Shown here: positions 20,891 through 50,093 of the stretch, one piece after another
Numbering within the stretch: position 1 is the first letter of the stretch
How the letters are laid out: every line of letters starts with the position of its first letter
Assembly (NCBI GenBank): GCA_964016885.1
Contig: OZ024742.1
Span: forward strand, 217,868,001 to 217,932,000
Length of the DNA stretch: 64,000 bases
From: Eledone cirrhosa
Taxonomy: Eukaryota
Direction: 5' to 3'
Notes under the pieces: model-generated
Told to the model about the DNA's origin: nothing
What the model saw: only the letters and a program-made list of their open reading frames with translations
The model's database searches: none
Made by a program: the position numbers and the translations under genes

Positions 20891-21100
20891 CTATCTATCT
20901 GTCTGTTTGTCTGCCTGTCTGTCTGTCTGTCTGTCTGTCTGTCTGTCTGTCTGTCTGTCTGTCTGTCTGCCTGTCTGTCTATCTATCTATCTATCTATCT
21001 ATCTATCTATCTATCTATCTATCTATCTATCTATCTATCTATCTATCTATCTATCTATCTATCTATCTATCTATCAATCTATCTATCTATCTATCTATCT
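20891..21100. repeat. (TGTC)n(TATC)n microsatellite, target tract of the Tx1 cluster
   Basis: Direct reading. Confidence 0.95.
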
Positions 21101-21316
21101 CTCTTTCTGTCTAACGTGTGGAATATCGCCGGTAAGTTTTTTGTTAATTTCTATGCAAAAAACCGATCTAATTGTTTGAAAAAAATACAACACTTTGTAG
21201 ATTAACCCCCAAGCTGAATTGTCAGCTGGGTGGTAATCCCATTTTTCGCCCCTGTAGGGGTGAAAATTTTATTTAAAAGTTTGTTTTAAAATATCAAAAT
21301 TTACAAAGTAAAAAAC

Positions 21317-23050
21317 TTGAGCAACACTAGAACGCTGGAGAACGTTAATAGAGAAAAGAGAGAGAAAGAGGCAGATATTAACGTTATATCTGCTTCTGCT
21401 GCTATGGACGTTGCCATAGATACTGTCACAAAAGAAAAAAATATATCAACATTTGAAAATGTCATTATTATTAACAACATAATTATTAACAACAACATCA
21501 CACAAAAAAAGAAAAAGTCTTTCACTGACACAGTCAACAAGAAACAAGATTTTATAAATCTTGATATCTCCAACGCAAGACATATGCTCCAGCAAGGGAG
21601 AAAATTTGTAACTTTCGAAGAAAGAGGTGGGTTTAGAATTAACTCACCCCTTGAAATAAAGGAAGACACAAACCGCCGATCAGTCACTTTTAGGACTGCG
21701 TCAAATTCGTCAAGAAAACCGACATTTGTTAATCAGTCAGATATAGAAGATTCTTTCAAGGAGATTCTAGGAAATGTCGATTTTCTCCAGCGAGGAAAAC
21801 AGTACGGAAGTGTTTCCGTACTGTTTAAAAGCGAGGCACTGGCCCCAAAAAACTCTGTGACACCAATAGTGTCAAAAGCATACACCTTTTTCCCTACATA
21901 CATGGGGAAAAGGACACAAAAAATAAAAATAAAAAACATACCTCCAAGCATTAACATCTGGTGGATCTTGGCTGGCTTCGTAGAGCCAGAAACAGACATA
22001 ATACTTTCGATACGAAAATCCATTCGACAAAGGTGGGCGGGCACCAATTTAAAGATTCTGTTGCAAATGAAACCGGAGAGAATCTCCAAAATATCCGAAA
22101 GAGTCGTTATTGATAATAACAACAAAATAAACATTTCGGTAGAAGGAAGAAAATTTCACTGCTTTCGCTGTGGTAGCACATCTCACCTAAAAGCCTCTTG
22201 TCCACAAACACACAACATCAACATCATAAAAAAAAACGCTATTACCAACACCAACACCAAAACAACCACCACCACCACCACAAGTACAACGACAGACGAC
22301 ACGAGCAACCACACCAAAACAAACAGACACTCAACCAACAACAACAGAAAAAACAGAGACAACACCCCTGAAGAACACATCCCCACTCCATCAAACACTA
22401 CCACAAACACACATACCGAAACACCACCACCACCACACAACATACCCTTATCCCACACACCTGACGATGATTATTCATCGACGGATGAAGCTGCTTCTCC
22501 TTCTTTAAGTGAAGAAGAGGGAGAACCGCGGAAATCCAAAAAACAAAAAAAGAGACACCACAAAACCCCCAAAACTCCAATCACCAACACACAACCACAG
22601 ACACAAACAACAACACAAACAACACCACAGTCAAACATCCCCCTATCAGCAAAACCAACACCAACACCACCCCAAACACAAGCACCCACCATAAAAAGAA
22701 AACTCCCGGATGAACAACAAACTAAAACAATACAACAAAAACACAAACAACAATACGCATACATCAACACAAACAATAAGAGTTTGATGGAGGTCATCTC
22801 CCAAAACCCCAAGGTGGAGACGGAGGGCAAAACTTTCGTCAAGGCAGAATCGTCTCCACACCTTAAACTTATAAGGGTTTCTATGGAAACCTATAAAGAC
22901 CTGAAAATTAAATTTTCACAGGACGTGGGCAACCCCTGCCACAAACCCATCAACCGCGTCCTGTTGAAAGGTTTCCCCACCCCACCCAACACCCCATCCA
23001 GCACCCAAATGGAGATTGAACAACCCGATCTCCAGGAAACGAAAAGGTAA
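21317..23050 (+). CDS. ORF1 nucleic-acid-binding protein (CCHC knuckle); start uncertain, first ATG at 21404
   Basis: 577-codon open frame with CFRCGSTSHLKASC knuckle; homologous to family B ORF1. Confidence 0.85.
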   Translation: MSNTRTLENVNREKREKEADINVISASAAMDVAIDTVTKEKNISTFENVIIINNIIINNNITQKKKKSFTDTVNKKQDFINLDISNARHMLQQGRKFVTFEERGGFRINSPLEIKEDTNRRSVTFRTASNSSRKPTFVNQSDIEDSFKEILGNVDFLQRGKQYGSVSVLFKSEALAPKNSVTPIVSKAYTFFPTYMGKRTQKIKIKNIPPSINIWWILAGFVEPETDIILSIRKSIRQRWAGTNLKILLQMKPERISKISERVVIDNNNKINISVEGRKFHCFRCGSTSHLKASCPQTHNINIIKKNAITNTNTKTTTTTTTSTTTDDTSNHTKTNRHSTNNNRKNRDNTPEEHIPTPSNTTTNTHTETPPPPHNIPLSHTPDDDYSSTDEAASPSLSEEEGEPRKSKKQKKRHHKTPKTPITNTQPQTQTTTQTTPQSNIPLSAKPTPTPPQTQAPTIKRKLPDEQQTKTIQQKHKQQYAYINTNNKSLMEVISQNPKVETEGKTFVKAESSPHLKLIRVSMETYKDLKIKFSQDVGNPCHKPINRVLLKGFPTPPNTPSSTQMEIEQPDLQETKR

Positions 23051-23091
23051 GTGCACCTTTCGTCCTTTTTCTCCAACTTTTCTTCACCAAC

Positions 23092-46730: not shown

Positions 46731-47079
46731 GTGCTCCACCCCAGTCGTTTTTATGAAAGGTGGGTGAAAGTGGCGAGAATGGCCCGTGTGAATGGGCCTT
46801 CTCTTTACATAAGCCTGTAGGTGGAAAAGAGGAAGGAACGAGGGAGCACCCCCTCTCTGTGCTCCTGAGGAAAAGGGTTGCACACTTTTTTCGGGGGTGT
46901 GTGCGACCCCCCAAGGCGCCTCCTCTCTATTGAGGATTTTGTTATAAATTTTATTTTTTGTTATATTTTATTTTTAAACATTGTTATTGCCTCCTCCTTA
47001 TTGAGGACGCCTTTTTGTGTAAACTCCCCCCTTTTTACTTGTCCCACTTTTGATGCCCTGGTGGCAAATAAAAGAAACA
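46731..47079 (+). mobile_element. Short 5'-truncated family B copy (B4) with a 15-bp TSD
   Basis: tatctatcctgatag at 46716-46730 and 47080-47094. Confidence 0.92.
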
Positions 47080-47087
47080 TATCTATC

Positions 47088-50000
47088 CTGATAGCTGGAC
47101 GCATACAATTTTGCTGGTAAGTTTCTGTCAATTTATTTACAAAAAACAGAAATTCTTGTTTAAAAAAACACATTGTTTTGTAGATTAACTCCCAGGCTGC
47201 ATTGTCAGCTGGGTGTCAATCTCATTTTTCACCCCCGCAGGGGCGAAAATATAATTTGAAATAATTTGAAAAACTGTTAAGAAAATTTTTAATATTTTGC
47301 CATCAGCAATGGCTAGCGTACAAGGAACGCTAGCGAACGTTGAGGAAGGAAAAAGAAAAGAAGTAATAGATTTTAACGAAGCCAATATGGACAACAATAA
47401 TAAAAACAAGATTGAACCACACAGTGTACAACAGACACCAAAAAATGAAACGATTGACACAACTACAAACGGAAAAACCGACAGCCACAACAACAATAAC
47501 AACACAAAAAAAAACTTTTGCGCAAACAGTCATGAACAAACAAGAGTTCAAGGATCTCGATATCTCCAATGCGAGACAGATGCTCTCTGAAGCAAAAGAG
47601 TTTATCATTTTCGGTGAAAACGGTGGGTTTCAAATAAACTCACCCCCAGAAAATCGTCTTGAAACATTTCGAAGGACAGTTAGCTTCAGAACTGTTTCAA
47701 ATGAAACAAAAAAACCAGCATTCCTCATTCAAGGGGAAATTGAGGCAACCTTGAAGGAAATATTGCCAAACATTGACTTTATGCAGAGGGCCAAACAGTA
47801 TGGGAGTATTTCGGTGCTCCTCAAAAGCGAGGCCCTCACACAAAAATATTCAGTGACATCAATACTGTCAAAAAAAAAACACCCTTTGCTCTACATACCT
47901 GGGAAAAGGAACTCAGAAAATCAGAATTGCAAACATACCAGCAAATATTAATATTTGGTGGATATTGGCAGGATTTTTAGAGGAGAGACAAGACACCATT
48001 CTCTCCATCAAAACGTAAACCAGACACACGTGGTCTGGTACAAATTTGGAGATTCTGGTGCAAATGAGCCCGGAGAGAATCTCCAAAATACCCGAAAAAG
48101 TGCTGGTGGACGACAACAGCCACATAAGCATTTCGGTTGAAGATAGAAAACCACACTGCTTTCGATGTAACAGCACAGCACATCTAAAGGCCTCCTGCCC
48201 TTTACAGACACATTTAACCCCCCCCCCCCCCCCGAAAATACTGTTACCAACACCAACACCAACACCAAAACAACCACCTACACCACCACCACCACCACCA
48301 CCACCACCACCACCACCACCACCACCACCACCACCACAACAACAACAACTACAACAACAACAACAACACACAAAACAAGAAAACGCACCATAACAAACAG
48401 CCACTCAACCAACAACAGCAGGAAAAACACAAACAACTACTCCGAAGAACACAGTCCCACCCCATCTCACTCCATCCAACACTGCCACAAACACACACAC
48501 ACAAACACACCATGACCACACAACATACCCCTACCGCAAACTCCTGATGACGAATCATCGTCAGACGAGGCTACTTCTTCATCTCCAAGTGAAGATGGAC
48601 AGCCTCTAAATTAAAAAGCAACAACAAAAAAGGCACCACAAAGCTACAAAAACAACAATCACCAACACCAACACACAACCACCGACACAAACAACAACAC
48701 AAACAACAATACCCCCCCCCCCCTACCAGCAAAACAAACACCAACACCACCCCAAACACAAGCACCCATCATAAAAAGAAAACTCCCGGACGAACAACAA
48801 ACTAAAACAACACAACAAAAACACAAACAACAATACGCATACATCAACACAAACAACAAGAGTTTGATGGAGGTCATCTCCCAAAACCCCAAGGTGGAGA
48901 CGGAGGGCAAAACTTTCGTTAAAGCAGAATCGTCTCCACATCTCAAACTAATAAGGGTTTCTATGGAAACATATAGCGAACTAAAAACAAAATTTTCGCA
49001 GGACGTGGGCAACCCCTGTCAAAAACCCATAAACCGCGTCCTGTTAAAATGTTTCCCCACTCTACCCAACACCCCCACCAGCACCCAAATGGAGATTGAA
49101 CAACCCGATCTTCAGGAAACGAAAAGGTAAGTGCATCTTTTCGTCCTTTTTCGCCAACTCTTCTCCACCAACATGGCTAATTTACGAGTTGGAAGCGTGA
49201 ATGTGCGTGGCCTAGGGATGCCCTGGAAACAGGGCCAACTTTTAAACGACCGTAGGTTAGACGGTATGGATGTGATAGCCATCACCGAGTCCAGGATCCA
49301 CAACAGGCTGCAACTAACTCCCATCTTCAATGACTTTGAGATCTACGCATCTCTCTGTCAGCCAGGAGGTGGAGGGGGAGTGGCTATCATGTTTCGGAAA
49401 AACCTGGACGTTGAAGTACAGCAAGTACACTTGGACCCGGAGGGTAGACTGGTAGTCCTAAACGTGAACAGTGTTGGAGGTAGAGCCTTCAGACTGGTGG
49501 CCGTTTATGCCCCGATTGGGCAATCGCGGCCTGACTTCTTTAAGCGTCTCGAGTCTTTTCTGGGAACGTCTCGCTCCTTGCTTTTAGTGGGGGACTGGAA
49601 TGGCATCCTAGACGCACGATGGGACTATGTAGGATCACGTCCCAGTAGAGGGGTGTGCAACAGCCTCAAACATTTAATCGGCCAATTCCAACTGGGCGAT
49701 AGGTATCGACTAGATTTCCCGACTGCACAACAGTGGACCTGGACAAACCTCAGCGGGACATCTAGATCGTATTTAGACAGGTTCTTTATTAGAGAGAGAG
49801 AGAGAGAGAGAGAGAGAGAGAGAGAGAGAGAGAGAGAGAGAGAGAGAGAGAGAGAGAGAGAGAGAGAGAGAGAGAGAGAGAGAGAGAAGAAGATGTTAAG
49901 CTGTCCACAAATGCACATGGTTGCCTATTCAGACCACAAACTAGTCATCTGCATAGTCAACCGTGATAGAATACATAGACAAGGACCCGGATACTGGAAG

Positions 50001-50093
50001 CTGAACGTGTCGCTACCGACACGTAAAGCCTACAGTGAACGGATAAGTAGATTAGTTAAGCAACAATTGACGGGAGCCATCGTCAACAACAGA
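47088..50093 (+). pseudogene. Decayed Tx1 copy C (family A-related): 5'UTR, frameshifted ORF1, APE part of ORF2, 3'-truncated
   Basis: CFRCNSTAHLKASC; ORF1 C-terminus nearly identical to A; ORF2 homology ends at AIVNNR. Confidence 0.92.

Follow-up and report, generated by a model that had tools for sequence, protein, structure and literature searches.

Several retrotransposons without long terminal repeats (non-LTR) insert specifically into microsatellites. Within the Tx1 clade, PMC4494074 and PMC3812793 describe Kibi and Koshi of teleost fish, which occupy (TC)n and (TTC)n respectively, as well as crocodilian families found in (TTCC)n/(TTTC)n, while PMC3812793 and PMC4640811 list Waldo at (ACAY)n, Mino at (AC)n (R1 clade), Dong at (TAA)n and Togen at (TG)n. 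The mechanism by which APE-type elements target microsatellites is described as not well understood in PMC3812793. Here we analyse a window of 64,000 nucleotides (nt) of contig OZ024742.1 (assembly GCA_964016885.1, positions 217,868,001 to 217,932,000), in which Tx1-like elements are stacked within a (TATC)n repeat, (GATA)n on the opposite strand. An earlier reading of this stretch, hereafter the original prediction, had proposed a GATA-repeat-specific Tx1 family and cited Kibi and Koshi as elements of trinucleotide repeats; microsatellite-specific Tx1 families do exist, but the (TC)n target of Kibi is a dinucleotide repeat, and (TTC)n is that of Koshi.

Like Kibi, Koshi and the crocodilian families, the window elements are APE-type non-LTR elements inserted in microsatellites. 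Unlike in Kibi and Koshi, their likely target unit is TATC, and their host is likely a cephalopod. They also form a clade of their own (99-100% support in the Shimodaira-Hasegawa-like approximate likelihood ratio test, SH-aLRT) apart from fish Tx1 proteins, which are unnamed and stand in for Kibi and Koshi. Waldo, Mino, Dong and Togen share the microsatellite specificity, in the case of Waldo also for a tetranucleotide, but belong to other clades and use other repeat units. The best named and characterised match is Tx1 of Xenopus laevis (Tx1L), whose second open reading frame (ORF2) is 30% identical over 833 columns and shows the same domain order. Xenopus Tx1 differs in its target, the DNA transposon Tx1D, in an ORF2 of 1,308 amino acids (aa) versus about 1,146 here, and in an endonuclease hairpin loop longer by two residues. 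In Octopus vulgaris and other coleoids, PMC13282606 and PMC8967140 report 13 recently active L1-Tx1 families with 421 insertions, and 80 families in all. The window elements probably belong to this same repeat class, for which the text searched gives no target sequence. No non-LTR element targeting TATC/GATA was found in the literature searched, which was mostly judged by title; Repbase and Dfam lay outside this search, and prior annotation there is possible.

Layout of the array and its junctions

We consider it rather probable that two related Tx1-like families inserted five times in one TATC tract, likely by targeting (TATC)n/(GATA)n, and that two further copies of part of the resulting stack arose later, through probable unequal crossing-over or through over-assembly. 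Self-alignment and ORF maps delimit seven Tx1-like segments between about 21114 and 50093, all on the plus strand and named A, B0, B1, B2, B3, B4 and C (Table 1). While A and B1-B3 are full length, B0 is 5'-truncated, B4 is reduced to 349 nt and C is devoid of its 3' part. Identity between A and B amounts to 37% aa in ORF1 and 77% aa in ORF2, which separates families A/C and B and bears out the earlier claim of at least two clearly diverged families. C groups with A, at 92-93% nt identity in the two parts compared (the end of ORF1 and the start of ORF2).

Table 1. Position of the elements, repeats and signals discussed in the text (position 1 is the first nucleotide of the window).
Feature	Position	Strand	Remarks
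Free (TATC)n/GATA tract	11366..11514	-	About 150 nt, unoccupied, 9 kb from the stack
E, decayed interrupted relative	12339..14533	+	3' end followed by TAATCATTAC, not TATC
Upstream (TATC)n/(TGTC)n tract	20889..21113	+	Tandem Repeats Finder (TRF) and sequence; predates the first element
Element A, full length	21114..26772	+	5' end uncertain by ~6 nt; 3' end AATAAAGAAA
GTAAGT...YAG stretch in the 5' untranslated region (5'UTR) of A	21132-21257
Donor-like AG/GTAAGT at ORF1 stop (A)	23047
Acceptor-like ORF2 stop (A)	26538
Perfect (TATC)n spacer A-B0	26773..26843	+	~18 units; TRF, sequence
B0, 5'-truncated family-B copy	26844..29463	+	From ORF2 codon ~368; one frameshift
Imperfect TATC spacer with TTAA interruption	29464..29497	+	Identical copies after B1 and B2
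B1 unit	29498..35261	+	5,764 nt with spacer
GTAAGT...YAG stretch in 5'UTR of B	29529-29654
Donor-like AG/GTAAGT at ORF1 stop (B)	31499
Acceptor-like ORF2 stop (B)	34964
B2 unit	35262..41025	+	100% identical to B1
B3, full length	41026..46711	+	45-nt in-frame ORF1 deletion; 3' 460 nt of another subtype
15-bp direct repeat, left of B4	46716..46730	+	Two TATC units + CTGATAG
B4, 5'-truncated family-B copy	46731..47079	+	349 nt; AG microhomology at 5' joint
15-bp direct repeat, right of B4	47080..47094	+
Element C, A-related, decayed	47095..50093	+	3' part lost; ORF1 frameshifts; (GA)n expansion in endonuclease
GTAAGT...YAG stretch in 5'UTR of C	47117-47240
Donor-like AG/GTAAGT at ORF1 stop (C)	49127
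F, heavily decayed relative	52010..52915	+	Interrupted by a short interspersed element (SINE); ATATTATT at the end of its 3' remnant, immediately followed by D
D, 5'-truncated decayed relative	52912..55705	+	63-69% aa to B; 3' end followed by ~18 ATT units, then SINE array

B1 and B2 are identical at 5,764/5,764 nt, including the spacer with its TTAA interruption, and identity at a period of 5764 runs without a break over 28229-36354. B0 departs from B1 at nine sites, all before unit position 4496, while B3 departs by its ORF1 deletion and by 22 substitutions, all of them from unit position 5299 on. B1 and B2 thus combine a B3-like front with a B0-like back, a pattern that unequal crossing-over of B0 with B3 would leave, as would an assembler that over-expanded the repeat; on these sequence comparisons they are likely B0/B3 recombinant duplicates that arose through tandem duplication or over-assembly. 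Seven independent insertions are ruled out by the B1-B2 identity and by this mosaic make-up. The independent insertions are five (A, B0, B3, B4 and C), one of which was probably tripled later by either route. Therefore, the seven copies in one orientation announced by the original prediction stand as plus-strand segments but not as separate events. A single template-jumping event for the entire stack is likewise ruled out: the copies belong to different families, their unequal states of decay imply more than one insertion event, and B4 is flanked by a duplication of its own. No element has landed inside the body of another over the ~17.5 kb of the cluster.

For the junctions, a position was scored as TATC-associated when its start lies within 2 nt of a TATC-phase repeat of at least 8 nt. 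TATC is found within 2 nt of the 3' end in 4/4 independent 3' joints, C having no 3' end, and the independent 5' ends (5/5) lie 0-13 nt from TATC. B0 and B adjoin it directly, B4 and C are 7 nt away (CTGATAG), and some 8-13 nt of pyrimidine-rich sequence separate it from A. Downstream of B0 the tract persists as short stretches at every joint. Thus, the original statement that TATC is present at every intact junction holds for all four independent 3' ends, but only 2/5 of the 5' ends directly adjoin the repeat. Outside the cluster 144 of 69,518 strand-positions (0.21%) pass the test, and within the de-duplicated cluster 222 of 17,712 do (1.25%), so that the association at this one locus is far above chance. 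In all families the 3' terminus is AATAAA-N-GAAA, with no poly(A), and RNA folding of the 3' ends was no better than that of shuffled sequences in 4/4 cases. Microhomology of 2 nt with the target occurs at the 5' joints of B0 (CT) and B4 (AG). B4 lies between 15-bp direct repeats made of two TATC units and CTGATAG, likely a target-site duplication; a clear duplication is seen for B4 only, being masked by the repeat elsewhere. At the 5' joint of C there is also a small inverted repeat, CTATC-CT-GATAG (46724-46730, 47088-47094), which perhaps reflects fold-back copying when C was inserted.

A profile of the 3' ends (nhmmer) recovers eight ends in the window. Neither this profile nor local alignments, which scored no better than shuffles, reveal an element 3' end before the upstream tract, and local alignments reveal no element end beside the free tract at 11.4 kb, again scoring no better than shuffles. 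TATC tracts therefore exist independently of the elements, and the first insertion took place in a tract that was already there. Together with the 15-bp duplication around B4, the absence of an element end before the upstream tract indicates that TATC is likely the target. The local preference of the five insertions for TATC is convincing.

The family B stretch, or part of it, is present in 20 of the 24 sequencing runs listed, and no RNA data set is listed as containing it. Four runs (X1, X4, X5 and X6) were compared with a permuted B unit from which the junction 29462-29507 was excluded as repeat. At 29751, 30077, 30441, 31397 and 32003 a letter other than that of B1-B3 accounts for all depth in X1, X4 and X5, while X6 does not show these letters. 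B1-B3 thus have private letters in common that the bulk of X1, X4 and X5 lacks, which marks them as descendants of one aged copy. In X1, the 5'UTR and the beginning of ORF1 are covered ~5-18 thousand deep and late ORF2, where relatives also map, 260-700 thousand deep, a gradient of the kind that 5' truncation predicts. Run X5, labelled as a second organism, contains a 1,554-nt ORF1 contig with 6 differences, which indicates that family B is either of recent origin or common to closely related species. The last 460 nt of B3 (46250-46710) form a subtype distinct from that of B0 and B4, with 22 substitutions. Eight letters of this subtype account for all depth in X5 and a minority in X1, so that two 3' subtypes circulate.

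Probable targeting of TATC and competing readings

Elements of this type are known to integrate by target-primed reverse transcription. At this locus the endonuclease would nick the GATA strand, with the phase GATA/GATA or GAT/AGAT, either being compatible with the junctions, and the freed 3' end would prime reverse transcription at the non-poly(A) terminus AATAAA-N-GAAA of the RNA, where a few read-through UAUC units might pair with the primer. Each event would duplicate about 15 bp of target and leave fresh TATC on both sides, and this renewal of the landing site would give rise to a same-orientation stack, in which B0 and B3 would later have recombined or been over-assembled. Targeting is favoured because two families with ORF1s only 37% identical share one site, and because families of the Tx1 clade are known that target microsatellites.

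Several observations weigh against it. Three of the five 5' joints hold 7-13 nt of non-TATC sequence, and around B4 the duplication might instead consist of 7 bp together with a TATC tail of variable length. Moreover, this is a single locus, at which events after the first landing are non-independent samples of the genome; PMC4494074 calls a family target-specific when >20% of its genomic copies are flanked by the target. The hairpin loop of the endonuclease can shape target specificity in such elements, and here the hairpin region, which lacks two residues relative to Xenopus Tx1, aligns ungapped to that of the non-specific human L1. Finally, the relatives D, F and E, which the original prediction had overlooked, are without TATC flanks, which could indicate a loose preference for AT-rich repeats.

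D is sister of A + B in the second reverse transcriptase (RT) tree (98%), and D and F are 73% identical to A in the RT; the alignment of F scores 44-46 versus 34-37 for the best of 300 shuffles. F followed by D constitutes a second, older stack (52010-55760) joined at ATT repeats rather than at TATC. As both sit at ATT repeats, the TATC preference appears limited to the A/B/C sub-lineage, and the difference may represent a target switch between sister families, although the ATT of D could also be an element tail. A broader proposal, that a cephalopod Tx1-like branch evolved microsatellite targeting independently of Kibi and Koshi and that its sister families switched target, A/B/C using (TATC)n and D/F (ATT)n, is tentative and somewhat doubtful. 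A SINE-like repeat of ~200-250 nt occurs in seven copies (55750-56890, 52652-52836 and, on the minus strand, 16649-16842), five of which follow D directly, head to tail with short ATT spacers. No tRNA or Rfam match was obtained in the window, this repeat included, and it may resemble the Meta/MESC SINEs of molluscs.

The TATC units might alternatively be an element-encoded 3' tail. The elements would then insert widely and stack only where the UAUC tail anneals to a GATA primer, e.g., the tail of an earlier copy, the site being selected by RNA-DNA pairing instead of by a specific endonuclease. Such a tail is consistent with the lack of poly(A) and with TATC beginning no more than 2 nt from the fixed 3' end in 4/4 cases, B3 and B4 carry three and two TATC units before CTGATAG that are readable as tails of variable length, and the endonuclease loop has the length of that of L1. 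However, a tail alone leaves unexplained the TATC that lies 5' of A and C, and no element end precedes the 225-nt upstream tract. Given that this tract pre-exists and that 5' ends also adjoin TATC, we regard the tail as unlikely to be the whole explanation, and with pairing added it still amounts to TATC targeting. Another reading, to our judgement rather unlikely, holds that the lineage favours AT-rich simple repeats (T-A steps) only loosely and that a repeat-dense region acts as a local retroelement sink, TATC being incidental. It draws on the ten Tx1-like pieces found in 64 kb, all on the plus strand, on the ATT repeats at which D and F sit and SINEs stack, and on the richness of the window in microsatellites. 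Nevertheless, the perfect repeats outside the cluster (2,814 nt) comprise 1,108 nt of (AT)n, 480 nt of (AC)n and only 140 nt of (AGAT)n, yet all five insertions used TATC, and (AT)n, eight times as abundant there as (AGAT)n, was left unused by A/B/C. As for orientation, the agreement of three independent events (E, the TATC stack and the F/D stack) has p = 0.25.

It is very improbable that the entire array, junctions included, is an artefact in which collapsed repeat contigs were glued together at TATC tracts. In favour of an artefact, B1 and B2 are exactly identical, long microsatellites invite mis-joins and no listed read contig spans the B stretch. In contrast, particular letters, microhomology or a target duplication distinguish every independent joint, and B1-B3 carry the private variants expected of one real aged copy, which confines the doubt to the number of B units.

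Coding capacity, classification and relatives

The elements bear the marks of APE-type non-LTR retrotransposons, namely a fixed 3' end, 5' truncation, target duplication, absence of LTRs and a separate upstream ORF1. Pfam identifies PF03372 and PF00078 in ORF2, with PF13966 (the C-terminal zinc finger) below its cut-off, and ORF2 matches that of human L1 over its full length. The endonuclease catalytic motifs, whose role is known from L1, are invariant in 8/8 aligned proteins. The ORF1s of the window give no Pfam match, and a single-sequence fold reached a predicted local distance difference test (pLDDT) score of 35. A model of the ORF1 core from a 31-sequence alignment reached pLDDT 93, its best fold matches being tandem RRMs (E 5e-5, with a template modelling score, TM, of only ~0.3). 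ORF1 is accordingly predicted to combine a CCHC knuckle with tandem RRMs, the layout of Tx1-clade ORF1s; PMC5203782 gives the RRM/CCHC combination as a trait of the clade.

In A, ORF1 is open over 21290-23050 (first ATG at 21404) and includes a CCHC knuckle, and ORF2 (23092-26538) encodes endonuclease, RT and zinc finger with YADN in place of YADD (25150). B has YADD, as do 4/4 other clade members checked, so that the RT of A is likely inactive. B1 has an intact ORF2 (31527-34964), as do B2 and B3, but its ORF1 starts at an ATG (29709) that is followed at codon 15 by a TAG (29751-29753), shared by B1-B3, and then by an ATG with 582 open codons (29754-31502). In all 3 runs covering 29751 an A is found at full depth, i.e., copies without this TAG. 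C is broken: its ORF1 has frameshifts, its endonuclease holds a (GA)n expansion, and the element stops at 50093. The expansion (~90 nt, 49795-49887) is in frame and yields a run of RE dipeptides. The original prediction of intact, probably active copies is hence not supported for this window: A carries YADN, C is broken, B0 and B4 are truncated and B1-B3 have the ORF1 stop in spite of an intact ORF2.

Splice-like signals recur in these elements. A, B1 and C each contain exactly two GTAAGT motifs (0.5-1.4 expected in each), one ~20-30 nt from the 5' end and one as AG/GTAAGT overlapping the ORF1 stop. A pyrimidine-rich YAG follows the first donor by 124-126 nt in A, B and C, and the ORF2 stop is a pyrimidine-preceded TAG/G in A, B and E. 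Judging from sequence, ORF2 may be removable by splicing, which might set the ORF1/ORF2 output. These sites are homologous in three related elements and so are not independent cases, and the one at the ORF2 stop may reflect coding conservation. Among 44 distant two-ORF loci, none has a donor motif at the ORF1 stop. In the runs, 0 of the 15 joints shown (of 184) had GT..AG ends and one contig was unspliced through the candidate 5'UTR intron; the run type is unrecorded, so that this has no bearing on splicing. Fusion of ORF1 and ORF2 by a short intron is ruled out, the first downstream AG being in frame in B only.

The assignment as a Tx1-like element with APE, RT and zinc finger is favoured by the scores of ORF2, 315 bits to Xenopus Tx1 ORF2 versus 167 bits to that of human L1. 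Since no named L1, Kibi or Koshi is present in the RT trees, membership in Tx1 rests on these scores. The trees, of 101 and 32 rows, came from quick searches with SH-aLRT only and leave out rows covering <330 or <280 query residues, respectively. In these trees the clade as a whole (99-100%) is separate from the Tx1 proteins of Xenopus and fish, and A + B (99%) and an octopod-type group (99-100%) are recovered; the node joining the clade to Xenopus Tx1 has 85% support, in trees devoid of a named L1 or an outgroup. The named members of the clade are cephalopod. The nearest proteins are one at 69% and those of Argonauta hians at 63-67%, with those of the cuttlefish Acanthosepion pharaonis in a sister clade, so that the host is likely an octopod. 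A metagenome scan yielded 80 loci, nearly all at 23-36% identity (one segment at 43%) and none in this clade; viral scans yielded no loci of close relatives, and the one match of a prokaryote scan, in a Clostridia metagenome-assembled genome (MAG), was judged to be due to chance. One relative, 63% identical, comes from a 1,775-nt contig assigned to a Herbaspirillum MAG and is in all likelihood host DNA that was grouped with the bacterium during binning. With ORF1, a word search found no match; once low-complexity matches are set aside, the relatives recovered by a full HMMER search are 21-39% identical.

Elsewhere in the window, a 468-nt tandem unit occurs in direct and inverted copies over 1-2077, and an inverted relative of it lies just upstream of the cluster (19845-20604).

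Implications for Tx1 elements and their hosts

As an insertion tool, these elements would be of modest value. Vertebrate genomes contain many GATA repeats at dispersed positions, which therefore offer no single safe site, and the activity of the copies described here is putative. Should the local preference prove to extend across the genome, the site-choosing Tx1 elements would gain (TATC)n/(GATA)n as a target, as well as an origin in invertebrates that is likely independent. Sister families with different targets, if real, would offer a ready comparison for locating the determinants of specificity in an endonuclease whose loop has L1 length, by means of domain swaps. Insertion into such repeats, if true, would also help to explain how recently active long interspersed elements (LINEs) are tolerated in the repeat-rich genomes of cephalopods.

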